Assembly (NCBI GenBank): GCA_026396515.1
Contig: JAPLWQ010000003.1
Coordinates: 99,569 to 163,568 of the forward strand
Origin: Candidatus Magasanikiibacteriota bacterium
GTDB lineage: Bacteria > Patescibacteriota > Patescibacteriia > Magasanikbacterales > GWA2-37-8
Length of the DNA stretch: 64,000 bases
Reading direction: 5' to 3'
Shown here: piece by piece, positions 1-53,215 of the stretch
How positions within the stretch are numbered: the first letter of the stretch is position 1
How the letters are laid out: the number at the start of each line of letters is the position of its first letter
Translations under genes and position numbers: made by a program
The notes under the pieces: model-generated
Databases searched by the model: none
Told to the model about the DNA's origin: nothing
The model's input: the letters and a program-made list of their open reading frames with translations, nothing else

Positions 1-923
1 AAAATATACGAGAAATTGAGCACAATGGCCTATTGTGGGTTAACGTGGCAAGACAAACTGAAAAGGATTTGGTTCAAATTCAAAAACGATTTGGGCTGCT
101 TGAGCAGGATATTCAAGAAAGTTTGCCGCCGTTTCAGCGTGCGAAAATTGTAAAAAGAGATAATTATTATTTCATGGTTTTGCATTTTCCGGTTTATAAC
201 CGCAATACCATGCGCCTCGGCTTTACGGAGGTCGATTTCTTCCTTAGCGCAAATTACATAGTTACTGTTCACGACTCGCGTTTGCCGGTTTTGGATCAAT
301 TTTTTAATGAATGTAAGAAATATCCGGAGCACAGGCAAAATTATTTCAGCGGCACTGCCGTTCATACCCTATTTGAGCTTTTGACCCGGCTGCTCGACTC
401 GATTTTCCCGATTCTTTTGCATGTTAATGAAGACATAAACACAGTTGATAAAAAATTGTTCACAAAATTTACCGGCCGGCAAATGGCTGAAGAGATACTA
501 AGGTTAAAAACAAATATTGTAACTTTCCGGCGTACGATGCAGGGCCACCGTACCGTCCTTGAACGCCTTATTATGTATAGCGGCCGGGAGCTGGACCTGA
601 TGGCTTACCAGAACTATATTAATAATTTGCGGGAATTTACCAATGAAATTTGGCACATGCTGGAAAGTCAGAAAGAAAGCATTAATGCTTTACACGAAAC
701 AAATGAATCAATCGTCAGTTTGCGCACCAATGAGGTGATGAAGACACTGACCATTATTTCAGTTATTACTTTTCCATTAACGCTAATTGCTACAGTATTT
801 GCCATTGATGCCAACGGCCGGCCGTTTGTTGATATGCCGTATGGATTTTATCTTATTTGCGGGTTGATGGCCCTGGGCGTTATAATGATGGTGGGTATAT
901 TTAAAAAGAAAGATTGGTTGTAA
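1..923 (+). CDS. corA: CorA-family divalent cation transporter, 5' end cut by the window edge
   Basis: The frame is open to position 1. The C-terminus (two TM helices ending ...GVIMMVGIFKKKDWL) aligns by eye to CorA C-termini. The canonical GMN signature is not obvious. Confidence 0.75.
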   Translation, partial: NIREIEHNGLLWVNVARQTEKDLVQIQKRFGLLEQDIQESLPPFQRAKIVKRDNYYFMVLHFPVYNRNTMRLGFTEVDFFLSANYIVTVHDSRLPVLDQFFNECKKYPEHRQNYFSGTAVHTLFELLTRLLDSIFPILLHVNEDINTVDKKLFTKFTGRQMAEEILRLKTNIVTFRRTMQGHRTVLERLIMYSGRELDLMAYQNYINNLREFTNEIWHMLESQKESINALHETNESIVSLRTNEVMKTLTIISVITFPLTLIATVFAIDANGRPFVDMPYGFYLICGLMALGVIMMVGIFKKKDWL

Positions 924-22086: not shown

Positions 22087-22159
22087 GCCGTTGTAGCTCA
22101 GTTGGTAGAGCAACTCCATGGTAAGGAGTAGGTCCGCGGTTCAAATCCGCGCAACGGCT
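22087..22159 (+). tRNA. tRNA-Thr (anticodon GGT)
   Basis: Manual cloverleaf: acceptor GCCGTTG/CAACGGC, D-loop AGTTGGTA, anticodon loop ATGGTAA, T-loop TTCAAAT. Confidence 0.8.
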
Positions 22160-22188
22160 CTGGGTTTACAAATAGTATCGCCTTGTAC

Positions 22189-22261
22189 GCCACCTTAGCT
22201 CAGCTGGTAGAGCAACGGTTTTGTAAACCGTAGGTCGTCGGTCCGAGCCCGACAGGTGGCT
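22189..22261 (+). tRNA. tRNA-Thr (anticodon TGT)
   Basis: Manual cloverleaf: acceptor GCCACCT/AGGTGGC, anticodon loop TTTGTAA. Confidence 0.8.
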
Positions 22262-22277
22262 CGCAGATCATTTAATC

Positions 22278-22359
22278 GGATGGGTTCCCGAGCGGTCAAA
22301 GGGGACAGACTGTAAATCTGTTGGCTCCGCCTTCGAAGGTTCGAATCCTTCCCCATCCA
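22278..22359 (+). tRNA. tRNA-Tyr (anticodon GTA) with a long variable arm
   Basis: Acceptor GGATGGG/CCCATCC, anticodon stem ACAGA/TCTGT, loop CTGTAAA, a 13-nt variable arm and T-arm GAAGG-TTCGAAT-CCTTC. Confidence 0.8.
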
Positions 22360-22386
22360 CATTGTAAATTAATAATATTGAAAAAT

Positions 22387-22551
22387 ATGTCGTCCAAAGA
22401 AAGAGAAAACATGATAAAGATGGAGTGTTCTGAATGTAAGCGCGTTAATTACTTCAGCAGAAAGAATAAAAAACTTCTGAAGAACCGCTTGGAGATAAAG
22501 AAATACTGCCGTCACTGCAAAAAGCACTTGGCACACAAGGAAACAAAGTAA
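22387..22551 (+). CDS. rpmG: 50S ribosomal protein L33
   Basis: [54 protein letters not shown] carries the L33 CxxC...CxxC zinc ribbon. The ORF-track extension back to 22321 would run through tRNA-Tyr. Confidence 0.85.
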
Positions 22552-22555
22552 TTTT

Positions 22556-22584
22556 AAGGGCAGGACTCTTGTCCTGCCTTTTAA
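22556..22584 (+). terminator. Intrinsic terminator after rpmG
   Basis: Hairpin AAGGGCAGGAC-TCTT-GTCCTGCCTT followed by TT. Confidence 0.55.
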
Positions 22585-22588
22585 ACAC

Positions 22589-22626
22589 GGGGGGGTTCGT
22601 ATAGTGGTAGTATTATGGTCTCCAAA
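22589..22626 (+). pseudogene. tRNA-like 5' fragment (Trp-like anticodon loop, no matching 3' half)
   Basis: GGGGGGTTCGTATAGTGGTAGTATTATGGTCTCCAAA has a classic D-loop AGTGGTAG. It shares GGTCTCCAAA with the tRNA-Trp 0.5 kb downstream. No complementary acceptor or anticodon 3' strands were found. Confidence 0.3.
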
Positions 22627-22668
22627 TTGCCTTGTTATTGGAGGAATGATGACGTATAATATAGACAT

Positions 22669-23112
22669 ATGGAAAGTAACATATGTCTAAAATGTCACAA
22701 GAGCAAGCTGATATCCGAATTCAGTATTAGAGATAAGGAATCAAGGCGTTTTCATAGCCTCTGCAAAGATTGCCATTCAAAATATAGGCGAGAGCACTAT
22801 TTGCGGAATAGAGAGAAATATTTAGTTAAGGCAAAACGATGGAACAAGAAACAGACGTTTTCTCTACGCGCATTTATCTTCGACTATCTCTCAAATCATC
22901 CATGTGTAGATTGTGGTTCGAAAGATGTTAGAGTTTTAGATTTCGACCATGAAAGAGATAAGAAAATGGGCATCGCTCAAATGATACGAAATTGTCATTC
23001 ATTGTCATCGGTAGAAAAAGAAATTAAAAAATGCAGAGTAAGATGTGCTAATTGCCATAGAATAAAAACATTTTCACGAGGAAATTTTTGGAAAAATAAA
23101 ATGGGTCCGTAG
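22669..23112 (+). CDS. HNH endonuclease with an N-terminal CxxC/CxxC zinc finger (homing-endonuclease-like)
   Basis: CVDCGSKDVRVLDFDHERDKK...CANCH is an HNH core. The stop codon lies inside the 5' end of tRNA-Trp. Confidence 0.7.
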   Translation: MESNICLKCHKSKLISEFSIRDKESRRFHSLCKDCHSKYRREHYLRNREKYLVKAKRWNKKQTFSLRAFIFDYLSNHPCVDCGSKDVRVLDFDHERDKKMGIAQMIRNCHSLSSVEKEIKKCRVRCANCHRIKTFSRGNFWKNKMGP

Positions 23113-23174
23113 TTTCAATGGTAAAACATCGGTCTCCAAAACCGAGGTTCCCCGTTCGAATCGGGGCGGGCCTG
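23103..23174 (+). tRNA. tRNA-Trp (anticodon CCA)
   Basis: Acceptor GGGTCCG/CGGGCCT (two G-U pairs), anticodon stem TCGGT/ACCGA, loop CTCCAAA, T-arm CCCCG-TTCGAAT-CGGGG. Confidence 0.8.
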
Positions 23175-23238
23175 CGATTTTTACCCCGCATAGGCGCGAA
23201 GCGCATTGTGCGGGGACTACACCCCCTGCGAAATAAAT

Positions 23239-40836: not shown

Positions 40837-41670
40837 ATGCCGAGAAAGGCAGGGTCCAAAATGGCTAAAGTTTTATCACATATTAAAGAAAAACCTTATT
40901 TCAATAAGGGTGATTTTGTTTTATATCATGGTGACTGCATAAACACCCTCGAGCAAATACCGGAAAATTCGGTTGATATGGTTTTTGCGGATCCACCCTA
41001 TCTTTTGTCGAATGGCGGTTTTACATGTGACGGCGGAAAAATGGTTAGCGTAAATAAAGGCAAGTGGGATGTGAGCAACGGTCTTAAACAGGACTTTGAA
41101 TTTCATTTATCATGGATCAATGCGTGCAAACGCGTTTTAAAACCCGGGGGCACTATTTGGATCAGTGGAACATATCATTCAATATACCAATGCGGCTTCG
41201 CGCTTCAAGTGGAAAAGTTTCATATATTAAACGATATTGCATGGTTCAAACCGAATGCTTCGCCGAACTTGAGTTGCCGTTTTTTTACTGCCAGCCATGA
41301 AACATTAATTTGGGCGAGGAAAGACAAAAAAGCAAAGCACATGTTTAATTATAAATTGATGAAAAACGGTGATTGGCCGGATGATTTTATTAAAAAGCCA
41401 AACTTACAAATGCGAAGCGTGTGGTCCATTTATCCACCAAAAAGAGACGAGAAGAAATTTGGAAAACATCCAACTCAGAAACCGATTGATTTGCTTGTTC
41501 GGATTGTTTTGGCTAGTACAGATAAGGGTGACGTGGTTTTGGACCCGTTTTCTGGGTCCGCCACAACTGGATTGGCCGCGATATTAAATAATCGTAAATT
41601 TATTGGTGTTGATTTAGATAGAAAGTATTTGGATTTATCGATAAAGCGTTTCAGAAATTTAAATGCATAG
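40837..41670 (+). CDS. Beta-class DNA methyltransferase (N6-adenine or N4-cytosine), DPPY then FxGxG order
   Basis: Motif IV is VFADPPYLL and motif I is LDPFSGSATTGLAA. An alternative start lies at 40861. Confidence 0.8.
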   Translation: MPRKAGSKMAKVLSHIKEKPYFNKGDFVLYHGDCINTLEQIPENSVDMVFADPPYLLSNGGFTCDGGKMVSVNKGKWDVSNGLKQDFEFHLSWINACKRVLKPGGTIWISGTYHSIYQCGFALQVEKFHILNDIAWFKPNASPNLSCRFFTASHETLIWARKDKKAKHMFNYKLMKNGDWPDDFIKKPNLQMRSVWSIYPPKRDEKKFGKHPTQKPIDLLVRIVLASTDKGDVVLDPFSGSATTGLAAILNNRKFIGVDLDRKYLDLSIKRFRNLNA

Positions 41671-41672
41671 CT

Positions 41673-42221
41673 ATGCCAGTAAAGAAACCGGCTCGTAAAA
41701 ATATCTACACACATACGATAGATTTGGCACCTCTTAATATTATTAATCATCCACGCGAGCAATTTCGTGAAATGTTGGAAAGAATGAAATATCGCGGTTA
41801 TGAAGTCGAAAGATTGGCCGACGGTAGAAAAATTATTGTTACCAAGCCGGGAGGAAAATTTGTTTTCGGCACAGTGAAGCGTGAAGATTTTATGGTATGG
41901 ATTTTTAATCCGCAAACTAATGAATTATGGTTGATATCACACAAGAATATTTTTGAAGACCTCGAAAATAAAGCCAATGTTGATAAACGGGCGACTTTAC
42001 AAATTATTGCTGCGCTTGAGCGCGTTTATTCTGGCGATGAGCCCGATGTCGTTCTCGCCGAAATGGATTTGTCTAATCCTACAGGCGAGGCACCGGAATT
42101 ATTGTTAAAAGCATATAAATGGATTTGGGGCCAAGAAGATTGCAATTATCCAACGGGTGAAGGTAGGGATATGTCAATGAATATTATCAGAGAATTAAAG
42201 ACGCGTATTATTGTTGAATAA
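41673..42221 (+). CDS. Hypothetical protein, candidate cognate Type II restriction endonuclease
   Basis: 182 aa, 2 nt downstream of the MTase. No clear nuclease motif was recognised. Confidence 0.35.
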   Translation: MPVKKPARKNIYTHTIDLAPLNIINHPREQFREMLERMKYRGYEVERLADGRKIIVTKPGGKFVFGTVKREDFMVWIFNPQTNELWLISHKNIFEDLENKANVDKRATLQIIAALERVYSGDEPDVVLAEMDLSNPTGEAPELLLKAYKWIWGQEDCNYPTGEGRDMSMNIIRELKTRIIVE

Positions 42222-42268
42222 TTTTTCTGGTAAAATGATAAAATATAGACGCTAAATTTAGCTAAAAT

Positions 42269-45200
42269 ATGCCTTTGGATAATCGAATCATCGATAATCA
42301 GAATAGCAACAATTTATACCGCGCGATATCAGAAGCCATTGGAGATGACACCCAAGGCATAGATATTGAAGTTGGATATTTTTATCTTTGCGGATTTGAA
42401 CTTTTATCAAAAAAACTTGATAAAATTAAAGTGCGAATCCTGGTTGGTTCTTATATTGATCCAGAAGCCATACCGACTTTAATAATGGAATCGATGAAAA
42501 AAACATCGGTAAATTTAGATCCGTTCCAACCCAGAAGTGTTCCGACTTCAAAACAGGAAAGAGTCAGAGCTCTTGGAGAAGGTATCAAGAAACTTGCAAA
42601 CCAAACATCAATATTTGACGCACCGGAATCTCAGGAATCATACTCAATTCTCGAAAGAAAACTCGAAGATGGTTCCCTTGAGATTAAAATGACCGAAACG
42701 CAAGCGCATGGAAAATGTTATGTAATCCATAATAAAAATGCCGGCAAAGTCTTTATGGGGTCGAGTAATTTTACTTATAATGGCCTAGTTGGACAGCAGG
42801 AAATAAACGAAACATTTGATACGGAAGAAAAATATAAGGAATATTCGAATAAATTTTCCGAGCGATGGGCCGATGCGCGCAATATCGTCATTCAAGAAAA
42901 AGGTAAATCAGACATGTTTTTGAGAAAATTTAAAGATGAACTTTGGATGAATGTGGTGCCGACTCCGTATCTTATGTATGTCCGGCTCCTTAATGAGATA
43001 TTTGGCGCTGAATACGAAGTTGATGTAACTAGCGCATCACAGGCTACACGAGGACAGTATTTGAACCTTTCATATCAGATGGATGCAGTAAAGATGGCAA
43101 TTGAAAGACTGAAAAATTATGATGGCGCTATCATAGCGGATGTTGTCGGTCTCGGGAAAAGTATTATAGCCACTACTATTGCTGTAAATTGTCCTGATTT
43201 AAAAACGATAATTATTGCCCCTCCGCATCTTGTTCCGATGTGGGAAGATTATGCCGAAGAGTTTAAACTTCGAGGGCCAAAGGTTTTTAGTGCTGGTAAA
43301 ATTGATGAGGTTTATGATAAATATAAAAATTCTACGGAGCCTATATTATTTATTCTCGATGAAGCGCATAGGTATAGAAATGAAGACACGCAAGACTATC
43401 AGTTGCTCCATCAGTTGACCCGCAGTAACGGTGAAAATAAGGTTTTAATACTATCAGCGACGCCCTTTAATAATGACCCGAGCGATATTTTTGCTTTGAT
43501 TAAACTTTTTCAAACTCCTGGCGCCGCCACACTTCGAACCGTAGAAAATTTATCAGCGAAGTTTGCAGATCTTGCGAATAGATATAAAACGCTTCGAAGA
43601 TTTCAAGCAAACGGTGCCATAACCACGGAACAGCGCAAAGAATTAGATAATAAACGCGATGCCATCGCCTCTGAGCTTCGACGATTACTTGAGCCTATTA
43701 TAATTAGACGTTCGAGGATAGACCTTGAAAAAATTACTCGTTACCGAGATGATTTGAAGGCTCAGAAAATTGAATTTTCAAAGATGAATGACCCAATTAT
43801 TCGGGAGTATAAATTAGGTAATTTCACTGACCTATATTTAGAAACCATAAACAAAATTGTGCCGGAAAAGAAAATTGTCGGCGGTTTAACCGGCGCACGA
43901 TACATGCCTACGACCTATGCTTTAGATATTGTAGATTTTACTAAAAAGTATCCGGATTTTGAAGATATTAGAACGGCTCAAATGAACGTAGCTTCCTTTA
44001 TGAGAAAACTTTTGGTAATGCGTTTTGAAAGTTCAAGAGCCGCATTCCAAAGTACTCTTCAAAAATTTATCGATTCACATCAAAGAATTCTCGATTGGGT
44101 AGAAAAAAAACAATTAGTACCAATTTCCAAGAAAGCCTATATTCCATCACCGGATGAGATGCCGGAAGAAGATGCGGAGGAAATTAATTCGGAAGAACAT
44201 GCAGAATTCGCAAACACTGAAGTCGCAAATAATAAAAAGATTGTTTTTGTTAAACTTGAGGATCTCAATGAAAAATTTGTACCTGAGCTTAAACATGATA
44301 TCAGCGTACTTACAGATATTTACGAAAAATGGTTTGGTTCGCAATCGCCGTTTTTATCGATGCCGGACCCCAAATTAAAACAACTCACTTTAGACATTCA
44401 AGAACGTCTAGCCAACGATCCGAATCGGAAAATTGTTATTTTTAGTATGTACGCAGATACAGTTGTTTATATAGGTGAAGAGCTCAAAAACGCTGGTATC
44501 CCAACCTTTGTATATACTGCTCAAAACAGCAATAGCGATCGCAAAATAATCAGAGAGAATTTTGACGCCGGAATCCCAACCGATAAACAGTCCGATGATT
44601 TCAGGGTTCTTGTTGCAACCGATGCTTTGAGCGAGGGTGTCAATCTGAATAGGGCAGGACGAGTTATTAATTATGATATTCCATATAATCCAACACGAGT
44701 CATACAGCGGGTAGGCCGGATAAACCGAATAGATAAAAAAATGTTTAAGGAGCTTTTTATTGATAACTATTTTCCTACCGAACATGGCGAGAAGGAAGTC
44801 AATATCAGGGGTGTGTCAACTTTAAAGATGCAGATATTTAATTCCGTGGTAGGTAATGATTCGCGCACCCTTACAGAAGATGAAACTCCGGAATCTTTTT
44901 TCATTGACGAATTTAGAAAGGCGACAACCGAAGAAGAGAGTTGGGATACTGTACACCGAGAAGCATACGAGCAAGCAAAACGAAATATACAAACAATGGA
45001 ATTAGCAAAAAAGATTCCGATGAGAGCGCGCATTGTGAGAACAAATAAGCCAGTTCAATTGGGGGTGGGGGTTGGTATTCGAGGGCAAAATAAAATATAT
45101 GCGCTCGAAACTAATGGACGGGCTGAGTTGGTTGATGCAGAAAAAGTATTAAATCATTTTGCTGCGAAACAGGACGAAGTTAGCGAGAAAGCCGATGACC

Positions 45201-45556
45201 AATTCGGGTTGGTTTTTGCCATATTGAAGGAAAAACTTTTTGAAAAGCCGCCCATGGGGCAAATGTCGAGAAACCGAACAGAGGTCGTGCGCATATTACG
45301 AAGTATTCGAGAAACTCAATATCAAAATTACCGCGATGATTTAATGAAAGTTGTCAGCGATCTTGACGACCTTTCAGAGGGGCAACTCAAAGCAATAATT
45401 AAGTTAGCAAAGAAGACTGATTTGTCTGAAGACCGATTAGTCGAAGCTATTATCGAAATAGCGCCGGAACAGCAGGTAAAGGTGAGCTTGGATAGACAAA
45501 ATAATGAAGCAAAATCGGCAAATCTTCTATTATTTACGCAAGAGCACCGCATATGA
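42269..45556 (+). CDS. PLD(HKD)-nuclease domain fused to an SNF2-family helicase
   Basis: The N-terminus has an HKD-like AHGKCYVIHNKNAGKVFMGSSNFT. The helicase has motifs I LGKS, II LDEAHRYRN, III LILSATPFNN and VI QRVGRINR. Confidence 0.8.
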   Translation: MPLDNRIIDNQNSNNLYRAISEAIGDDTQGIDIEVGYFYLCGFELLSKKLDKIKVRILVGSYIDPEAIPTLIMESMKKTSVNLDPFQPRSVPTSKQERVRALGEGIKKLANQTSIFDAPESQESYSILERKLEDGSLEIKMTETQAHGKCYVIHNKNAGKVFMGSSNFTYNGLVGQQEINETFDTEEKYKEYSNKFSERWADARNIVIQEKGKSDMFLRKFKDELWMNVVPTPYLMYVRLLNEIFGAEYEVDVTSASQATRGQYLNLSYQMDAVKMAIERLKNYDGAIIADVVGLGKSIIATTIAVNCPDLKTIIIAPPHLVPMWEDYAEEFKLRGPKVFSAGKIDEVYDKYKNSTEPILFILDEAHRYRNEDTQDYQLLHQLTRSNGENKVLILSATPFNNDPSDIFALIKLFQTPGAATLRTVENLSAKFADLANRYKTLRRFQANGAITTEQRKELDNKRDAIASELRRLLEPIIIRRSRIDLEKITRYRDDLKAQKIEFSKMNDPIIREYKLGNFTDLYLETINKIVPEKKIVGGLTGARYMPTTYALDIVDFTKKYPDFEDIRTAQMNVASFMRKLLVMRFESSRAAFQSTLQKFIDSHQRILDWVEKKQLVPISKKAYIPSPDEMPEEDAEEINSEEHAEFANTEVANNKKIVFVKLEDLNEKFVPELKHDISVLTDIYEKWFGSQSPFLSMPDPKLKQLTLDIQERLANDPNRKIVIFSMYADTVVYIGEELKNAGIPTFVYTAQNSNSDRKIIRENFDAGIPTDKQSDDFRVLVATDALSEGVNLNRAGRVINYDIPYNPTRVIQRVGRINRIDKKMFKELFIDNYFPTEHGEKEVNIRGVSTLKMQIFNSVVGNDSRTLTEDETPESFFIDEFRKATTEEESWDTVHREAYEQAKRNIQTMELAKKIPMRARIVRTNKPVQLGVGVGIRGQNKIYALETNGRAELVDAEKVLNHFAAKQDEVSEKADDQFGLVFAILKEKLFEKPPMGQMSRNRTEVVRILRSIRETQYQNYRDDLMKVVSDLDDLSEGQLKAIIKLAKKTDLSEDRLVEAIIEIAPEQQVKVSLDRQNNEAKSANLLLFTQEHRI

Positions 45557-48500
45557 TAAATCCTATTTTTTCAAATAAATATAACGAAGAAACATTTGCT
45601 GAATTTATACAAGGTATTATTCCGAGTCTTTCTTTAGATAAAAAACGAGCTGAGGTTCGCACCGGTTTCAAATCAATCCAACAAATTGCAGAAGCCAGTG
45701 AAAATAAACTCGATTTAGTCGTTTTTGTAGCCCAGCTAGATTCATCGCTTCATGCTCGTGTCGAAATTACAAAGAATACTTATGCCGTGCTCAAAAGTCA
45801 TGCTAGGTCTAATGCTTTGGTTGCCTATATTTCAGATGATTCTTCGGAATGGCGCCTCTCTCTCATCACCACCAAGGTTGCGAGGACAAAAGACGGAACA
45901 AAAGAATCAATATCAAACCCACGTCGTTTTTCTTATGTTTTGGGACCAAATGCAAAAGTGGCGACGCCTTCAAATATGCTACGAGGAACCATCGACTCAA
46001 TTATTGATCTGGAAAATAAGTTTTCTTTGGCGGTAGTTAGTAAGGAATTCTTTACTCAGATAGCGACACAATATTCTAAGCTTGTTGGAGGAACACGAGG
46101 AGAGGGACGAAAGGCAATGGTTTTTGAAAGGACGCTTAAGCTCGGAGATACAAATGATGCCGTCAATGCAAATTTTGCCATTCGTCTTATCGGTAGGTTA
46201 GTCTTTTGTTGGTTTCTGAAACAGAAAAAAGGACATCTAGGTAGTCCGCTCATACCGTCTGAGATACTATCTGTTTCTGCTGTAAAAACAATTGGCGATT
46301 ATTATCATTCAGTTTGTGTCCCACTTTTTTTCGAGGTTTTGAATAAACCACAACCCTCTCGACCAACAATTTTTTCTTATTCAGAATTATTCGATCAAGT
46401 TCCTTTTCTAAATGGTGGATTATTCCAAGACCATACAGAAGACAACCATAAATTTAATCGCGCTACCGGAATGAGCGAGCGGCGCGGTGTGGTTATTGTG
46501 CCCGACATTTGGTTTTCTGAATTGTTTCAAGTTTTTGAGGAATACAATTTTACAATTGATGAAAATACTTCGATAGATACGGAACTCTCGATTGATCCGG
46601 AAATGTTGGGTCGAATTTTTGAAAATCTTTTGGCGGAGGTGAACCCGGAAACTGGTGCCAGCGCACGGAAATCAACCGGAAGCTTCTATACCCCTCGTGA
46701 GATTGTTGACTTTATGGTAGAAGAATCACTTATTGCTCATCTCAAAACAAAAACCAATATATCCGAAGAAAAGCTACGGGCTCTTTCGTCTTACGATTTG
46801 GACGATGACACATCTCATCCAATTGATCAGCAAGAACAAAAACTGCTTGTTGAGGCTATACATAATACAACGGTTCTAGATCCCGCCTGTGGTTCCGGCG
46901 CTTTCCCGATCGGCGTTCTTCAGAGATTGGTGCACATGCTTGGCGTTCTTGATCCGGAATGTTCGATTTATTTGAGCAGGATTCCACCTGAAATGCGCAG
47001 GCAACTTCAAAAACATAGCCTTACATATGTCAGAAAACTCGGCGTAATTCGAGAGTGCATACACGGGGTGGATATACAGCCTGTTGCTATAGATATTTCT
47101 CGCTTAAGATGTTTTCTGACACTTGTCGTTGACCAACAAGTTGACGACGATGCCCCAAACAGGGGTATTGAGCCATTGCCAAACTTAGATTTTAAATTTG
47201 TTTGTGCCAACACGCTTATAAAACCGCCGGTCCATGAAGGCCCGCTATTCGGCGATGAATTTGCAGATGCATTAGGAGAACTTATTGACGAATATTTTGC
47301 GCCGGTCGATCAGTTGCACAAATTGGAGACAGCACGAAAATTACAACAGTTGATAAGCGAAAAAACAAACAAAGAACTCGAAAGCATCATTAAGTCATAT
47401 AGCTATCTGAAAGATGAAAAACATAAACAAGCGTTGGCTCAAATAAATGAAAAGTTAGATAGTGAAAGAATACGAATAAATTCACTCTGGAAAAGTTACG
47501 AAAATATCTTTCAAAATAAACCCGTTGGTTTTTTTGATACCAGATATTTTTTCCCCGTTGTATTTCGTGGCGGTGGTTTTGATATTGTGATAGGTAATCC
47601 GCCGTATGTTAGACAGGAAGAATTTTCAGGTATTAAGCCAGTTCTAAAAGAACAATACGGTGATTTTTTTAATGGACGTGCTGATCTATATACATACTTC
47701 ATCGCAAGAGGGACGACACTACTAAAAGAACGAGGAATTTTATCTTTTATAACATCAAATAAGTTTTTTGTTCGGGGTTATGGTGAAAACACAAGAGCAT
47801 TGCTTACAAAAGATATATCATTAAAAAAAGTGGTGAACTTCGGTGAGCTTCCTGTTTTTCAAGCATCTGTAGATTCAGCGATTGTGCTAGCGGAAAACAC
47901 AAAACCAAAAGAAAAAGACTCGCTTGATTTTGCTCAAGCAAAGACAGGGGCTGATATTAAAAACATCCATGAATTTTTTGAAACAAAAAAAGGAACTATA
48001 AAATTAACTTCTTTGGGATCGGGGGTATGGTCATTGCAGGATCCCGAAAAGTTAACAGTTTTAAATAAAATAAAGAGTCAAAAGAATACACTCGGGGCAT
48101 ATTACGATGGTAATATTTTTGCTGGACTTAAAACTGGGTTAGACGGCGTCTACGTAATCACAAGAAGCTTTCGGGACAAGTTGATTAATGCTGATAAAAA
48201 ATATGAAGTAGTTATTAAACCCTGGCTTAGAGGAAAAGATGTAAAAAAATGGAATCCTAACTTCCATGATTTGTGGGTAATAAATCTACGTTCTTCCTCG
48301 AACTTTACGTGGCCCTGGTCCGGGATGAGTAATGTTGTGGCTGAAACGATATTTCAATCGCAGTATCCTATTTTATATGACTATTTAATTCAGCACAAAA
48401 AAAAGATTTCAAAAAGAAGTGATCAGGGCGATTACTGGTGGGAACTGAGGTCTTGTGCTTACGATGACAAATTCAATACAAGAAAAATCATATATCCTGA

Positions 48501-48912
48501 CTGTGCAAAAGAGATGAGGGCCACATATGATGAAACGGGGCTATACGGAACACTTGCTATGTACATAGTGAGCTACGACCCCATAATTATGGGAATATTA
48601 AATAGTAAGCTTTTCGATTGGTATTCAAGAATGACATTTGCAACATTTGGCGATCCATGGAATGGTGGGAGAATAATTTTCAAAACAATTTATATGTCAA
48701 AAGTCCCAGTGCCTGATACTAAAAATAATACCGGTGTATTGATTAAGGGTGGTGTTGATAAAATTTTGGCAATTACCAAATCGAGCGATTATTTAGAAAA
48801 TTCTGCAAAAAAAGCAGAAGTCAAAAAATACGAAGAACAAATTGACAAGCTAGTTTATGAACTCTACGATCTGAAACCGGAAGAAATCGAAATTGTAGAA
48901 AATTTGAAATAA
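45553..48912 (+). CDS. MmeI/Eco57I/PglX/DrmMI-like gamma-class N6-adenine MTase, possible single-chain Type IIG/L RM enzyme
   Basis: Motif I is LDPACGSGAFP and motif IV is GNPPYV. The ~300-aa N-terminal domain contains D-x8-ExK (AQLDSSLHARVEITK). It overlaps the upstream gene by 4 nt (ATGA). Confidence 0.75.
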   Translation: MINPIFSNKYNEETFAEFIQGIIPSLSLDKKRAEVRTGFKSIQQIAEASENKLDLVVFVAQLDSSLHARVEITKNTYAVLKSHARSNALVAYISDDSSEWRLSLITTKVARTKDGTKESISNPRRFSYVLGPNAKVATPSNMLRGTIDSIIDLENKFSLAVVSKEFFTQIATQYSKLVGGTRGEGRKAMVFERTLKLGDTNDAVNANFAIRLIGRLVFCWFLKQKKGHLGSPLIPSEILSVSAVKTIGDYYHSVCVPLFFEVLNKPQPSRPTIFSYSELFDQVPFLNGGLFQDHTEDNHKFNRATGMSERRGVVIVPDIWFSELFQVFEEYNFTIDENTSIDTELSIDPEMLGRIFENLLAEVNPETGASARKSTGSFYTPREIVDFMVEESLIAHLKTKTNISEEKLRALSSYDLDDDTSHPIDQQEQKLLVEAIHNTTVLDPACGSGAFPIGVLQRLVHMLGVLDPECSIYLSRIPPEMRRQLQKHSLTYVRKLGVIRECIHGVDIQPVAIDISRLRCFLTLVVDQQVDDDAPNRGIEPLPNLDFKFVCANTLIKPPVHEGPLFGDEFADALGELIDEYFAPVDQLHKLETARKLQQLISEKTNKELESIIKSYSYLKDEKHKQALAQINEKLDSERIRINSLWKSYENIFQNKPVGFFDTRYFFPVVFRGGGFDIVIGNPPYVRQEEFSGIKPVLKEQYGDFFNGRADLYTYFIARGTTLLKERGILSFITSNKFFVRGYGENTRALLTKDISLKKVVNFGELPVFQASVDSAIVLAENTKPKEKDSLDFAQAKTGADIKNIHEFFETKKGTIKLTSLGSGVWSLQDPEKLTVLNKIKSQKNTLGAYYDGNIFAGLKTGLDGVYVITRSFRDKLINADKKYEVVIKPWLRGKDVKKWNPNFHDLWVINLRSSSNFTWPWSGMSNVVAETIFQSQYPILYDYLIQHKKKISKRSDQGDYWWELRSCAYDDKFNTRKIIYPDCAKEMRATYDETGLYGTLAMYIVSYDPIIMGILNSKLFDWYSRMTFATFGDPWNGGRIIFKTIYMSKVPVPDTKNNTGVLIKGGVDKILAITKSSDYLENSAKKAEVKKYEEQIDKLVYELYDLKPEEIEIVENLK

Positions 48913-48956
48913 AAAAATCTAAAAAATTTCTATATTAATAAATTTTACGCACTAAT

Positions 48957-50585
48957 ATGGGGTCAAAATTCCTTTCAGCTCTTTCTGAAGAGGCGTATCT
49001 TAAACTAACTGATAAGTTGTATGGGATACAAAGTGGGCAGTGTTTTATATGCCAAAAAAAGATTGATTTAGCGCTTCAAACCACTAATATAGATCACATC
49101 ATACCACTTAAAACTCGGGGTAAGGATTCGGAAGATAATTTCGCCTTAACACACGAGAGTTGCAATAAATCGAAACTAGATGCAAATTTAAATATTGCAA
49201 GAATTTTGTGTCACCTTAAAGAAATACAGGACCGAGTTTTCGTCGATAGTGGTCGGGCGGCATCCCTTAAGGATGTTTTGGCTTCCTTTGGTGGTTCGAA
49301 GTATGATTTTAAACATAAGATTAGTAATGATAAGATTGAATTTAGTTTTTCAGACGTTAGAGAAAATGATATACAAATCAAAGATATTTATGAAGATATT
49401 TTAACTGGTAATCAGACTGGTAAAATTGAAAAGACTTGTTTTACAGACGTCCCCATTGAATACATTTATCACGATGACGCAATAAATCCACGTGGCATAA
49501 ACACAAGCATAAGTCGACTAGTAAAGGAATTTTATAAAGGCAATCCCCAGCTGCACTTATGTTTAGCACGAATCGATGATAATAAGTTAAAAATTTTTGA
49601 TGGTCAGCATAAAGCAGTCGCGCAAATATTACTTGGGAACAAGAGGCTGCTGCTCCGTATCTTCATTGACCCAAACGTAGATAGACTGACTGAGACAAAT
49701 ACTAACGCGGGGAGTACTTTGAGGCAAATTGCGTTTGATAAATCAATAATGCGCCAATTGAATAATACGTTATACACTGAGAAGATAGATAAATTTCAAG
49801 CGGACCACCACTTGGCAGAGGACGATTTCTCGTTTTCAGAACAGCAACTCGTCGATTATTTTAAGGGTGAAAATGTAAATATGAAAAAATATATTTCTGA
49901 TAGTATAAAACACTCCATTACATATTCAAAAGAAAATAAACTAAAAGATTACATAGACTTTGAAGGTAAGGCGAAGGAGTTACCAATTTCTTATAGTGCT
50001 TTTAGCAAAGCAATTCTCGAGCAAGTTGTCGATTCTAAACAATTTTTGGATACACCTATTAATTACAAGTCCGAAGAAGGTCTGAATCCACGAGAAATGC
50101 AGATAAACCAAATTGTTGAATTGCTTAATATAATTGCTGAAGAGATATATATCGGTAAATTTAAACCAGAAATTGGAGTATACCGTATTGAACAAAAGAT
50201 TATTGACAAGAAAGATGTAGAAATTACTACCGAGCATTTGACTGCTTATCGTATGAGCAAAGAAGAAATAATTTTCAATTGGTTTATATATTTAAACAAA
50301 GTCATTGAAAGTTATTTTAATAATACGGGTAGGATTTACGAAGCCAACCAATTATTTATGGAGAAGTTTGACGATCAATTGTGGGCAAACATACGGAATT
50401 TTATTAACAATTTATCCATCCTTCCTCTCTGGAAAGATAAGTCTATGGCAAGCACAATTTTTGCAGGTAAGAAGAATTATGATTATTGGAAAGAAATTTT
50501 TGAAAAGGGAAAAAGTCCTGACGGGGCGCAAGTTCTTGCCACGCCATTAAATTTTATTGAAATGATAAGAAGCGAAAAACAATAA
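48957..50585 (+). CDS. N-terminal HNH nuclease fused to a DndB/ParB-like (DGQHR-type) domain
   Basis: The HNH core is CFICQKK...DHIIPLKTRGKDSEDNFALTHESCNKSK. FDGQHKAVAQIL is a DGQHR/DGQQR-like motif. Confidence 0.6.
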   Translation: MGSKFLSALSEEAYLKLTDKLYGIQSGQCFICQKKIDLALQTTNIDHIIPLKTRGKDSEDNFALTHESCNKSKLDANLNIARILCHLKEIQDRVFVDSGRAASLKDVLASFGGSKYDFKHKISNDKIEFSFSDVRENDIQIKDIYEDILTGNQTGKIEKTCFTDVPIEYIYHDDAINPRGINTSISRLVKEFYKGNPQLHLCLARIDDNKLKIFDGQHKAVAQILLGNKRLLLRIFIDPNVDRLTETNTNAGSTLRQIAFDKSIMRQLNNTLYTEKIDKFQADHHLAEDDFSFSEQQLVDYFKGENVNMKKYISDSIKHSITYSKENKLKDYIDFEGKAKELPISYSAFSKAILEQVVDSKQFLDTPINYKSEEGLNPREMQINQIVELLNIIAEEIYIGKFKPEIGVYRIEQKIIDKKDVEITTEHLTAYRMSKEEIIFNWFIYLNKVIESYFNNTGRIYEANQLFMEKFDDQLWANIRNFINNLSILPLWKDKSMASTIFAGKKNYDYWKEIFEKGKSPDGAQVLATPLNFIEMIRSEKQ

Positions 50586-50686
50586 TTTTTTAATGTCCTA
50601 TTTTTTGATGCCGGAAAGTACAAATATTGGGCAATGAATAATATTCTAAACAGAGCGAAGACACAGAAGAAGTGGCAGTGAAGTCC

Positions 50687-50715
50687 TTGACATCTTTCTC
50701 ATTTTGTGTTATGTT
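50687..50715 (+). promoter_or_regulatory. Sigma70 promoter with an extended -10
   Basis: -35 TTGACA (50687-50692), 17-nt spacer, TGTTATGTT extended -10 (50707-50715). Confidence 0.5.
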
Positions 50716-50721
50716 ATAAAT

Positions 50722-50942
50722 GTAGCCCATTAAATTCTATTAGCGCGAAACGCGCCGCATAATTCTGCCAAAAACAAGGCAACCAGGGAAATCTGCTGGG
50801 AGCCATATGGATTATGACGACTAACTGCTAAAGCGGTTGGGAGATTTCATTCTAAGAGGTAGCAACCCGCCTACGTTTCATTCGTGAAACTACGGACGGG
50901 CAAGTATCTTTTGATGAAATCTCTTAGCCGCTTTTTTGTTTT
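50722..50942 (+). ncRNA. Structured RNA of unknown family (~220 nt), an sRNA or a cis-regulatory leader
   Basis: A 21-bp helix (50830-50850 paired with 50914-50934) encloses a GTTTCA-TTCG-TGAAAC hairpin. GCGCG-AAA-CGCGC and CCAG-N9-CTGG hairpins are also present. It ends in GCCGC-T6 and GTTTT. Confidence 0.4.
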
Positions 50943-50986
50943 CTTAAAGGTCGAACCGCTACGGCGGAAAGGAAAGCAATTCGGCT

Positions 50987-51523
50987 ATGATTAATTCATT
51001 AACATATACACATATGAGAAGAACTAAGCAAAAGACACATAAAGCAAGTGTTCAAGTTGATAACCCGCCATTGTTTATTGGCTTTATCATGGAAGAGAAG
51101 GCCTTTTCGTTTGATGTTTATTTAATAAACAATTCGAACTGGAAATATAAAAGCGTAACCATTTTTACCGGCGCATTTATGACGGTTGACGACGACCTGC
51201 TGGAGACGAGTAAGGTCGTTAAAGTTAAGGGTCCTCTTGGAGCTTATTCAAGCATAAAAATCGATAGAAGTGATTGGAATGAATTGGATTTTGTGATCTG
51301 GTATCACCTTGATCTTGTTCGCGCGGATGATACGGTCGAGAAATATTGGTTTTGTTTACCTAAAGGTGGCGGTGATTACGACAATAAGGTGATTAAATTG
51401 CCAATAATTAACAGGAAAGGCATGAGCATAGAATTGGAGGCCAGAAATGGTGAATGTATCGCAGAGGAGACCAAAACTATTGAGATGAAATCAAAGTATC
51501 ACAAATTTAGTAAGGAATATTAA
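50987..51523 (+). CDS. Hypothetical protein
   Basis: 178 aa with the RBS GGAAAGGAAAG upstream. No motif recognised. Confidence 0.45.
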   Translation: MINSLTYTHMRRTKQKTHKASVQVDNPPLFIGFIMEEKAFSFDVYLINNSNWKYKSVTIFTGAFMTVDDDLLETSKVVKVKGPLGAYSSIKIDRSDWNELDFVIWYHLDLVRADDTVEKYWFCLPKGGGDYDNKVIKLPIINRKGMSIELEARNGECIAEETKTIEMKSKYHKFSKEY

Positions 51524-51548
51524 ATAATAAATATTAAATAATAAATAT

Positions 51549-51806
51549 ATGAGTATTAATGATCTAAAATATATTAATGATGATGAATTGGATGGGTACT
51601 CGTTACTCGGAAAGGGAACAGGCACTAGCTTGCAGCACTGCGCAAGTATGGGTGTACGCCATTGCAAAGATTTTCTGAATCGAGTACGCGGATACAGGAT
51701 TGAGCAAAGCGACACCAGTGAAATGATGTATAAGGCCTTAAAGGAAATAGGGGATAAAAGAGAGTGGCCGATGTATATCACAGTGTCATTTTACGAAAAA
51801 AAATGA
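51549..51806 (+). CDS. Small hypothetical protein
   Basis: 85 aa. Its stop codon lies inside a perfect inverted repeat. Confidence 0.4.
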   Translation: MSINDLKYINDDELDGYSLLGKGTGTSLQHCASMGVRHCKDFLNRVRGYRIEQSDTSEMMYKALKEIGDKREWPMYITVSFYEKK

Positions 51807-51817
51807 CACTGTGATAT
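51775..51817. repeat. Perfect 18-bp inverted repeat (hairpin)
   Basis: ATATCACAGTGTCATTTT-ACGAAAA-AAAATGACACTGTGATAT. No U-tract follows on either strand. Confidence 0.7.
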
Positions 51818-51886
51818 ACTTGTCCAAAACAGCGTAAAGTGGGATAATATGTACAGATTTAATCAAATTTTGAAATTTATAAATAT

Positions 51887-52414
51887 ATGAATTCTCAAAA
51901 TAGACAAAGAAACTCTTTTGTTGCTTTATGCGATTATGCTTCACGTTCCAATTGGTGTTGGAATATTGTTTGTACAACCTGCGGGCATGGTGCGTTTAAA
52001 GTTTCGTATGCAAAAATAATCAATGGTCAAAATCCTGATGATGAATCATTTTGGCCATATGGCAAGGAAAATGACGATTCACTTAAAGAAATGAATGTTA
52101 ATAGAGTTTTTCTTGGTGATGCGAGTGCCGATGCCCAAATTAAACTTGCGTCTGTTGTCGCAAAAGCCAAATTATCCGATATCCAATCTGTGGCGAAATT
52201 TCCTGATTGGTTAGGGTATATTGGTCTTGTTATCCATCATTGTCCTAACCAGGAAGCCAGGAAGATTATATCCGATTCGTTTCTTTCGCAATTTATCGAA
52301 TTATTGAAGGATAAAGCTGGAATTCGCGAATATTTAAGCCAGAAACAAGCGAAACAAGAATTATTAGATATTAATGATTTAAGTAGAATTGAAAATGAAA
52401 TTGTTAATCACTAA
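51887..52414 (+). CDS. Hypothetical Cys-containing protein
   Basis: 175 aa with CWNIVCTTCGHG. No family recognised. Confidence 0.45.
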   Translation: MNSQNRQRNSFVALCDYASRSNWCWNIVCTTCGHGAFKVSYAKIINGQNPDDESFWPYGKENDDSLKEMNVNRVFLGDASADAQIKLASVVAKAKLSDIQSVAKFPDWLGYIGLVIHHCPNQEARKIISDSFLSQFIELLKDKAGIREYLSQKQAKQELLDINDLSRIENEIVNH

Positions 52415-52447: not shown

Positions 52448-53215
52448 ATGCTCGGCGCCATAGCAGGGGATATTATCGGTTCAGTTTACGAATGGAATAA
52501 TATTAAAACAACGGATTTTCCGTTGTTTTCAGACCGTTCGCATTTTACGGATGATACGGTAATGACTGTCGCTGTGGCCGAATGTTTAATAAGCGGGAAA
52601 GATTATTTTTTAACCTTTAAAGAAATTGGCCAAAAATATCCTGATGCCGGGTACGGCGATGCTTTCAGGCAATGGCTTTTTTCACGGCAGACCGAACCGA
52701 ACAATAGTTTTGGAAATGGCGCTGCAATGCGGATTAGCCCGATTGGTTTTTTCTTTAATGATTTGGATTCGGTTTTATCCAAAGCAGTGAAATGTACGAA
52801 TATAACTCACGATCATCCTGAAGCGCGGAAAGGCGCGCAGGCGGTTGCGGCAGCCATATTTTTGGCACGAACCGGCAAAACAAAAGCGGAGATTAAGGAT
52901 TATGTTGAAAAAAGTTTTGGCTATGATTTGAGCAGGCGTTTGGATGATATCCGGCCAAATTATAAATTTGATGCCAGTTGCCAGGGCTCGGTGCCTGAAG
53001 CGATTATTGCTTTTCTGGAATCCACTGATTACGAAGACACCGTACGGAAGGCGGTTTCTCTTGGTGGCGATAGCGACACAATTGCCTGCATAACCGGCGG
53101 AATCGCCGAGGCGTTTTATAAAGGCGTGCCTAATGATATAATTACCAAGACCCGGGCGTTATTAACACCTGATTTATTGGATGTCGTTGATAAGTTTTAT
53201 GAACATATTAAATAA
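52448..53215 (+). CDS. ADP-ribosylglycohydrolase family protein (DraG/ARH3-like)
   Basis: LGAIAGDIIGSVYEW...FTDDTVMTVAVAE are the N-terminal Mg-binding motifs. GGDSDTIACITGGIAEAFY is the C-terminal motif. Confidence 0.8.
   Translation: MLGAIAGDIIGSVYEWNNIKTTDFPLFSDRSHFTDDTVMTVAVAECLISGKDYFLTFKEIGQKYPDAGYGDAFRQWLFSRQTEPNNSFGNGAAMRISPIGFFFNDLDSVLSKAVKCTNITHDHPEARKGAQAVAAAIFLARTGKTKAEIKDYVEKSFGYDLSRRLDDIRPNYKFDASCQGSVPEAIIAFLESTDYEDTVRKAVSLGGDSDTIACITGGIAEAFYKGVPNDIITKTRALLTPDLLDVVDKFYEHIK

Follow-up and report, generated by a model that had tools for sequence, protein, structure and literature searches.

What does a protein do for its host when it places an HNH nuclease ahead of a ParB-like nucleotide motif? 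The question is raised by a 64,000-nucleotide stretch of DNA, referred to here as the window, from a Candidatus Magasanikiibacteriota bacterium (GenBank assembly GCA_026396515.1, contig JAPLWQ010000003.1, positions 99,569 to 163,568). An intact 542-residue open reading frame (ORF) in this window, the HNH-ParB-like ORF, encodes four parts: an HNH nuclease, a beta-rich linker, a domain resembling the ParB/sulfiredoxin (Srx) fold and a helical domain (Table 1). A first-pass annotation had described the HNH string, the DGQHK motif and the helical C-terminus, and had pointed out that the domain order is opposite to that of GmrSD and SspE; this description proved accurate. The same annotation suggested that the protein could sense or regulate DNA modification in the manner of DndB. 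We favor a defense nuclease over a modification regulator, because the gene is either solitary or located beside restriction-modification (R-M) and other defense genes. Specifically, we give even credence to the proposal that the family is a nucleoside triphosphate (NTP)-gated, mobile, stand-alone defense nuclease that follows the logic of GmrSD with permuted domains. The protein probably protects microbes from viruses.

The protein opens MGSKFLSALSEE, and its start codon is sound because the alignment with full-length homologs begins at residue 1. A protein from a Candidatus Magasanikbacteria contig (P0001) is 100% identical to it, and the full-length AlphaFold2 model has a predicted local distance difference test score (pLDDT) of 82.7. 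The HNH string (CFICQKKIDLALQTTNIDHIIPLKTRGKDSEDNFALTHESCNKSK, residues 29–73) matches PF01844 with 36.4 bits against a gathering cut-off of 21.4 (E 5.8e-9), and PF13395 (HNH_4) from Pfam also matches the region (E 3.1e-5). PF01844 is passed by 16 of 22 diverse family members, with E-values down to 1.3e-11. Residues C29, C32, D46, H47, N61, H66, C69, N70 and K73 are invariant in 40 relatives sharing 65–83% identity, in agreement with the earlier description of an HNH nuclease with its catalytic His and Asn in place. We take H47 to be the general base, as in the DH...N...N arrangement of Cas9; N61 and N70 are the predicted structural and metal-binding Asn residues, and C29, C32, H66 and C69 form a putative zinc site. 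When a profile of the family was compared with the sequences of the PDB, the only matches were to HNH regions: those of McrA, of many Cas9 proteins and of a group II intron maturase (E 1e-11), the maturase and Cas9 matches ranging from E 1e-11 to 1e-6. Similarly, Foldseek aligned Cas9 HNH domains and McrA with the N-terminal region of the full-length model, and NCBIfam, PADLOC and PHROG models (Cas9, IscB, PtuB, retron HNH and phage HNH) matched 50–60 HNH residues only. Among divergent cluster representatives, P0140, P0144 and P0270 have lost the catalytic DH (AY, DR) and retained FDGQHK and the helical domain, the catalytic His being absent in P0140 and P0144. Given these representatives, the ParB-plus-helical module may have a function independent of cleavage.

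The DGQHK motif lies 168 residues after H47, close to the spacing of about 170 residues first noted. To judge from the alignments, it is not a chance tetrapeptide match, because D215, G216, Q217, H218 and K219 are invariant across 22 members with identity down to 23%. The other residues invariant in these members are Q198, A222, N248, A251, L255, Q257, F260, E295, P343, R379 and R432, and the putative nucleotide site is the best-conserved part of the protein, with D215–K219, Q198 and N248 ranking highest. A Foldseek search of the full-length model against the PDB returned Noc, ParB from three species, the ParB-like PadC, pNOB8 ParB and sulfiredoxins as top matches. More than 20 ParB, Noc, PadC and sulfiredoxin chains headed the list, with E-values of 0.01–0.4, probabilities of 0.9–1.0 and target-normalized TM scores of 0.35–0.62, the maximum of 0.62 being reached with small Srx chains at a root-mean-square deviation of 3.2–3.7 Å; the top 50 otherwise contained HNH domains only. 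These matches map between HNH and residue 255, because residues 256–542, modeled and searched alone, gave no ParB or Srx match.

The layout of this central domain follows the same pattern. A beta-strand, VPIEYIYHDDAINPR, is followed by the helix SRLVKEFY, the NPQLH strand and a beta hairpin ending in FDGQHK, and then by the helix AVAQILLG, the strand LLLRIFI and ETNTNAGSTL. In ParB proteins, box I reads NPxQPR, box II GERRxRA and box III EN.., and the order and spacing of the three motifs in our protein are those of ParB boxes I–III and of the QR, DGxQR and FxxxN motifs of DUF262. The corresponding DUF262/DGQHR motifs have been given as QR, DGQ[QH]R and FxxxN (PMC4619093; PMC11411939). Here NPR stands in for QR, L/T-xxx-N248-xx-G-xx-L for FxxxN, and Lys for Arg in DGQHR. 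A DUF262–HNH protein of 387 residues with a DGQQR motif is encoded two genes downstream of an HNH-ParB homolog in a Desulfococcus metagenome-assembled genome (L019:4351-5529, + strand); it reads QPEYQR...VLDGQQR...TINIAGVPL, compared with INPR...FDGQHK...TNTNAGSTL in the HNH-ParB-like protein. Among 150 cluster representatives, TIGR03187 (DGQHR) was the sole non-HNH model matched repeatedly (nine representatives, best E 0.0038), every other non-HNH family being matched by two at most. In one of them, P0167, the match joins residues 173–234 to profile positions 68–132, which is the DGQH region. Based on the Foldseek matches, the register of the three motifs and the recurrent weak TIGR03187 matches, we assign residues ~158–255 as a predicted ParB/Srx-fold, DGQHR-like domain.

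This domain is a distant fold-level relative and not a demonstrated DUF262 or DndB member. Neither the HNH-ParB-like protein nor the 22 diverse members matched PF03235, PF14072, PF02195 or TIGR03233 in a scan at E <= 10, and PF02195 and PF17762 were unmatched in genuine family members. A hidden Markov model of residues 150–300, run against the 2,134 ORFs of the loci studied, reached a DUF262 protein only at E 3.5. No link to DUF262 at the sequence level was significant, whether by hhalign, the regional model or the comparison of the family profile with the PDB. The proposal of a ParB/DndB-like domain made in the first-pass annotation therefore stands for the fold, not for the families, whose profiles remain below threshold; the DGQH residues of its DGQHR-type motif are invariant and the last residue is Lys, not Arg.

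The long helical C-terminus noted from the sequence is borne out by the AlphaFold2 models. Modeled separately, residues 256–542 form an all-alpha domain with a pLDDT of 83.4 and a predicted TM score (pTM) of 0.85, in which E295, P343, R379, E382, H427, R432 and W492 are conserved. Foldseek found no relative for it in the PDB (best E 4.6, probability 0.02) or among the BFVD viral models (best E 0.98), a fold match to TasH was insignificant (E 5.5), and no Pfam, NCBIfam, PADLOC or PHROG model matched. The only non-trivial structural neighbor was BFVD A0A5J6TQ41, a viral protein of 549 residues (E 0.98, probability 0.69, 247 columns); of similar length, it could be a very distant viral relative of the family. 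A confident model without a structural relative makes this domain a prime candidate for a new module that recognizes DNA or a signal of infection. We think it rather doubtful that the family represents a new class of single-protein immune nuclease, in which a ParB-type NTP switch would couple an orphan-fold sensor of 287 residues to a Cas9/McrA-like HNH and recognize something that known Type IV enzymes do not cover. If so, the sensor could respond to a phage protein, to a phage DNA modification of a new kind or to a neighboring R-M system being inactivated, and a universal target would explain the unusually high conservation across bacteria and archaea.

Table 1 Coordinates of the HNH-ParB-like ORF, its parts and nearby features in the window
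Feature	Residues	Window position (nt)	Strand	Basis
HNH-ParB-like ORF, 542 aa	1-542	48957..50585	+	ORF list and translation; ATG start, TAA stop
N-terminal HNH (beta-beta-alpha-Me) nuclease region	1-98	48957..49250	+	Pfam, Foldseek, conservation
Pfam HNH core	29-73	49041-49175	+	PF01844
Contents of the HNH region	C29xxC32, D46-H47, N61, H66xxC69-N70, trailing helix 78-98			
Beta-rich linker subdomain	99-157	49251..49427	+	model strands 120-147, pLDDT ~90
ParB/sulfiredoxin-fold putative NTP-binding domain	158-255	49428..49721	+	Foldseek, motifs, sub-threshold TIGR03187
INPR motif of the ParB/Srx-like domain		49482-49493	+	motif translation
PQLH motif of the ParB/Srx-like domain	197-200			
DGQHK of the FDGQHK motif	215-219	49599-49613	+	motif translation
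ETNTNAGSTL motif of the ParB/Srx-like domain		49692-49721	+	motif translation
C-terminal all-alpha domain, ~14 helices	256-542	49722..50582	+	separate AlphaFold2 model
PLD(HKD)-SNF2 helicase, 1095 aa		42269..45556	+	Pfam PLDc_2, SNF2-rel_dom, Helicase_C
Eco57I/TaqI_C-type N6-adenine methyltransferase, 1119 aa		45553..48912	+	Pfam Eco57I E 1e-37, N6_Mtase, TaqI_C
N6_N4 methylase (277 aa) and 182-aa ORF		40837-42221	+	Pfam E 1.8e-55 (methylase)
Promoter-like TTGACA-17-TATGTT with upstream TG		50687-50715	+	
Perfect 20-nt inverted repeat, 7-nt spacer		51773-51819		

The beta-rich linker between the nuclease and the central domain gave no match in profile searches of Pfam, NCBIfam, PADLOC and PHROG. 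The combination of parts is shared across a large family, with 41–83% identity among its members and the HNH-ParB-like protein: at E <= 0.001, the protein matches more than 1,880 clusters built at 90% identity. The best 120 of these are 532–605 residues long with 97–100% query coverage, carry HNH as their only Pfam domain and are called 'HNH endonuclease' or 'hypothetical' where the source gives a name. Residues 85–542, searched against 1.84 billion representatives, returned 425 clusters at 50% identity, 70 of them with E <= 1e-30. The full-length members among these are all ~510–560 residues long, with the matched region beginning at residue 85–160, and the search turned up no other architecture. 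Odd-length representatives with Mito_carr or DUF1016/YhcG segments were rejected as true fusions, since they look like chimeric contigs or gene calls. Ribonucleotide reductase models also match a single representative out of the 150 clusters scanned (E 1e-11).

The gene is patchily distributed, with 109 carriers among 185,579 species representatives, a lower bound obtained with two peptide patterns only; 80 carriers were kept. Their proteins share 41–74% identity with the HNH-ParB-like protein, and ~65% over most of about 20 phyla, archaea included. Carriers belong to the Bacteroidota, Spirochaetota, Bacillota, Pseudomonadota, Desulfobacterota, Campylobacterota, Planctomycetota, Atribacterota, Cloacimonadota, Ignavibacteriota, Acidobacteriota, Verrucomicrobiota, Synergistota, Poribacteria and Cyanobacteriota (Gastranaerophilales), and to several lineages of the candidate phyla radiation (CPR) and the Nanoarchaeota. 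The mean GC content is 0.341 in the gene and 0.418 in its flanks, 7.7 points lower, and in GC-rich hosts the gene lies 20–25 points below its flanks. DNA similarity among loci ends ~30–130 bp past the ORF. The HNH-ParB-like gene is a horizontally mobile single gene.

Mobility of this kind could also mark a selfish, homing-like HNH gene that spreads by cutting and copying and brings its host no defense benefit. The HNH is nearest to the class of Cas9, IscB and group II intron maturases, and such a history would fit a lone gene that stays highly identical across distant phyla, has a foreign GC content and shares so little DNA past the ORF. However, no intron, intein or host gene encloses it, its insertion contexts are wholly different and share no common target sequence, and tblastn against 50,697 phage and 72,556 plasmid records found no homolog. 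Moreover, the 440-residue module of ParB switch and helical domain, unusual for homing enzymes, is more conserved than the nuclease, and the gene is enriched beside R-M genes. We regard homing as distinctly improbable.

A role in housekeeping or in the maintenance of mobile elements, such as repair, segregation or competition between plasmids and prophages like that of the ParB/Srx protein Osa, would take the gene outside phage defense. ParB-fold proteins do act in segregation and in conflict between plasmids, and the 71% identical homolog P0009 (L107–L109) lies amid more than 12 small co-directional ORFs without Pfam matches, a run suggestive of a mobile element. This run is downstream of two N6_N4 methylase genes, and the locus looks like the genome of a phage or mobile element. 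A maintenance function is nevertheless highly improbable in our view, given the patchy occurrence and foreign GC content described above, and the lack of ParA, parS-type context and a ParB helix-turn-helix (HTH) or dimerization domain.

To examine the company the gene keeps, three genes on each side were clustered across 77 genomes, and 118 immediate neighbors were compared with known families. The gene often stands alone among housekeeping genes, as in Bacteroidales, Geobacter, Paceibacterota and Spirochaetia. Only three sizeable families emerged within three genes, namely HsdR-, HsdM- and HsdS-like clusters at 10, 9 and 8 loci, respectively; HsdR is often directly upstream of the HNH gene and HsdM directly downstream. 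Among the 118 immediate neighbors, the only families matched more than three times were Type I R-M domains (HsdR 5–7, HsdM 6). Counting other DNA methylases, an R-M gene lies within three genes in about a quarter of the loci. Individual loci add further defense genes. The homolog P0003 (80% identity) has TIR and PemK genes on one side and BsuBI/PstI R-M genes together with SAVED/SMODS genes of a cyclic oligonucleotide-based anti-phage signaling system (CBASS) on the other; P0002 adjoins NmeDI_C and DUF4365 genes, and P0006 comes directly after HsdS-x-HsdR. A restriction enzyme protected by methylation is ruled out because most copies have no partner methylase, and the enzyme is therefore most likely modification-dependent (Type IV-like) or activated by infection.

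The recurrence of R-M genes, and of no others, beside the family raises the alternative of a back-up abortive-infection effector that guards R-M systems, lies latent next to Type I R-M or helicase-methylase systems, turns on when a phage disables them and cuts cellular or phage nucleic acid. The model for such a guard is PrrC, the anticodon nuclease that resides inside the EcoprrI Type I locus. In keeping with it, copies of the gene directly follow HsdR, separate hsdR from hsdM or come behind the PLD-SNF2 helicase and methylase genes, often across short gaps (44 nt in the window). Most copies are, however, solitary with no R-M system within three genes, and the R-M partners vary in type and sequence, the L027 pair sharing 24–29% identity with that of the window compared with 65% for the HNH gene. 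Because adjacent R-M partners are not conserved, a specific protein–protein guard relationship is unlikely, and we consider the guard proposal as a whole improbable.

The regulator suggested in the first-pass annotation would bind DNA at sites of modification and, depending on NTP, control a modification operon, with the nuclease attached. The DGQH motif and weak TIGR03187 matches agree with such a DndB-like sensor, as do the DNA methyltransferase genes that adjoin the HNH gene both here and at roughly one locus in four; PMC12704722 describes DndB itself as a ParB-fold, ATP/GTP-binding repressor. The genomic context lends it no support: no dnd, ssp or dpd genes were found in the window neighborhood, among the 118 immediate neighbors or in nine further loci, and most copies have no adjacent modification gene. 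In addition, the protein has no HTH or other recognizable DNA-binding regulator domain, and the conserved catalytic HNH points to cleavage as the output. This is the least probable of the readings that we weighed. An RNA-guided nuclease was rejected on other grounds, there being no Rfam matches, arrays or conserved non-coding flank across loci; CRISPR or TIGR-like arrays and Rfam RNAs were likewise not seen near the HNH-ParB-like gene.

In GmrSD-like enzymes, the ParB-like domain gates the nuclease by binding and hydrolyzing NTP, and BrxU is reportedly part of a plasmid BREX/Type IV defense island. Our GmrSD-like reading builds on the conserved nuclease and ParB-type site, the solitary mobile gene and its repeated occurrence in R-M and defense loci. 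From these we infer NTP binding, coupling between the domains, a DNA target and anti-phage activity. The C-terminal helical domain would recognize the target, oligomerize the protein, or both, the candidate targets being foreign or modified DNA or a cue of infection. The central ParB/Srx-fold domain (INPR, PQLH, FDGQHK and ETNTNAG) would bind, and probably hydrolyze, NTP and act as a conformational switch, which would license the N-terminal HNH (H47, N61, N70 and the Cys2-His-Cys zinc site) to cut DNA.

Several observations weigh against this proposal. The E-values of the ParB-fold Foldseek matches (0.01–0.4) are weak, structures of SspE, BrxU and GmrSD are absent from the top 50 matches, and the helical C-terminal domain is unlike those of SspE, BrxU and GmrSD by Foldseek. 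The phosphate-binding Arg of DGQQR, DGQHR and GERR is replaced by Lys in DGQHK. None of the DUF262, DndB, DGQHR and ParBc profiles reached threshold, TIGR03187 scoring 16 bits in P0167 against a cut-off of 58.85. Likewise, hhalign gave P 0.04 and a probability of 1.3% against 13 diverse plasmid DUF262 proteins, with the register as expected, and E 0.058 and a probability of 0.9% against a low-diversity DUF262–HNH family (P0271). About three quarters of the loci have no defense neighbor, the phage and plasmid records hold no homolog, and the PADLOC search of the protein matched nothing beyond HNH. PADLOC-DB 2.0 holds no model of the family, and our literature searches found no description of it, which does not disprove that one exists.

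In the window, the HNH-ParB-like ORF follows two large genes. The PLD-SNF2 helicase, two genes upstream, matches PADLOC 'HKD+Snf2' (E 2e-37) and is DrmD-like; it is probably a separate restriction-like translocase-nuclease. The methyltransferase matches a PADLOC type IIG-like model (E 1e-94), shares 4 nt with the helicase gene and is separated from the HNH-ParB-like ORF by 44 nt. The pair (42269–48912) resembles a two-gene ATP-dependent R-M-like system (phrog_26785, E 5e-98). The same order of helicase, methylase and HNH genes occurs in a Sphingobacteriales locus (L027:2-6567), where identity to the window proteins is 29% for the helicase (over 880 residues), 24% for the methylase and 65% for the HNH protein. 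An obligatory three-gene system of PLD-SNF2 helicase, methylase and HNH protein was rejected, the pair being present in only 2 of 81 loci and far more divergent than the HNH gene.

These genes lie in a region of low GC content (0.35–0.39 over window positions 42000–52000, compared with 0.42–0.52 in the rest of the window), which takes in two unannotated ORFs besides the helicase, methylase and HNH genes and stops short of an ADP-ribosylglycohydrolase gene (52448–53215). The low GC content would fit an acquired island; neither an integrase nor a flanking tRNA was seen, the tRNAs of the window being at 22087–23175. Further upstream, an N6_N4 methylase gene is followed 2 nt on by a 182-residue ORF whose sole family match is a very weak NucS-like one (E 0.055); this pair, at the left edge of the low-GC island, may be a Type II R-M system whose endonuclease went unrecognized. 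Past the HNH-ParB-like ORF, the 275 nt that follow a promoter-like site (to 50990) fold unusually stably as RNA, with a minimum free energy of -99.3 kcal/mol (z = -6.06, with 0 of 200 shuffles as stable), and contain a long imperfect hairpin with arms at 50830–50857 and 50907–50934. The folded stretch matches no credible Rfam family and is not conserved beside homologs in other loci. A leader or small RNA for the ORF at 50987–51523, or a repeat element, could account for it. A perfect inverted repeat (GTATATCACAGTGTCATTTT / AAAATGACACTGTGATATAC) sits ~70 nt upstream of an unannotated ORF (51887–52414) and resembles an operator or terminator.

The family is large and widespread and is named only 'HNH endonuclease', so that a simple experiment could name a widespread defense gene; the family is easy to test, and its mechanism is expected to follow a known paradigm. 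If our reading is true, a permuted architecture would be added to the NTP-switched restriction nucleases, a ParB/Srx switch would be able to act on a classical zinc HNH that precedes it in the chain, and the ParB-CTPase fold would extend to a clade missed by current Pfam and TIGRFAM models.

How, then, does the protein compare with known systems? Likeness to Cas9, IscB and TasH is confined to the HNH segment, Cas9 and IscB models scoring 19–35 bits against cut-offs of 100–375. Canonical ParB proteins are alike at the fold level only, as our protein has no ParBc match, HTH, dimerization domain or ParA/parS context. PMC12704722 reports that ParB-type folds can bind ATP, GTP or CTP and lists fusions of this nucleotide-binding module to HNH, a combination also found here; the Clostridioides difficile ParB-HNH-HNH protein tested there differs in architecture. 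The fusion plots of that survey are Pfam-coded and the HNH-ParB-like family has no ParBc match, so the family probably lies outside it. General mention has also been made of COG1479/DUF262 ParB-like domains fused to HNH and other nucleases (PMC3632139).

The 387-residue DUF262–HNH protein described above belongs to a family (P0271–P0390; some copies are named 'McrA' by the source) that likewise joins a ParB-like DGQ domain to a PF01844 HNH and is 83–87% identical across Bacteroidota, Spirochaetota, Chloroflexota and Patescibacteria, a second strikingly conserved, widely transferred single-gene nuclease family. It differs in having DUF262 first and HNH last, in being 150 residues shorter and recognized by PF03235, and in lacking a large C-terminal helical domain; outside HNH, it shows no significant sequence similarity to the HNH-ParB-like protein. 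DndB and other DGQHR proteins (TIGR03187, PF14072) share four of the five DGQHR residues and the succession of a ParB/Srx fold and a helical domain, and the sub-threshold TIGR03187 matches fall on the corresponding region. Unlike them, our protein contains a nuclease, carries Lys in place of Arg, has no PF14072 match and has no dndCDE or ssp genes nearby.

The GmrSD, BrxU, SspE and TgvB class (DUF262–DUF1524) is the model for our reading. Both this class and our protein are single polypeptides with a ParB/Srx fold, a helical region and a His-Me finger nuclease, and both have a DGxQ[R/K] nucleotide-site motif within three comparable motifs (QR-like NPR, DGQHK and xxxN-x2-G-x2-L). Members of each are stand-alone genes found repeatedly within or beside Type I R-M and other defense loci (PMC11411939). 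For GmrSD-like enzymes, embedding in Type I R-M, BREX and Hma loci has precedent: TgvAB is located within a Vibrio Type I R-M locus, a Type I R-M operon of Campylobacter jejuni has a GmrSD-related gene between its hsdR and hsdS, and the GmrSD-like genes BrxU (= HEC-05) and HEC-06 are embedded in Hma clusters (PMC11411939). The differences are that the nuclease comes first in the HNH-ParB-like protein and its ParB-like domain is central, not N-terminal; that its nuclease is a zinc PF01844 HNH of the Cas9/McrA/intron-maturase type and not DUF1524 (PF07510 gave one match in 22 members, E 0.1); that it carries DGQHK in place of DGQQR, with the PF03235 model and hhalign both failing; and that its 287-residue helical domain is C-terminal and has no fold similarity to the solved SspE and BrxU structures. 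Taken together, while failing the profiles that define these groups, the HNH-ParB-like family shares the fold and motif logic of GmrSD, SspE, BrxU and the DGQHR proteins.

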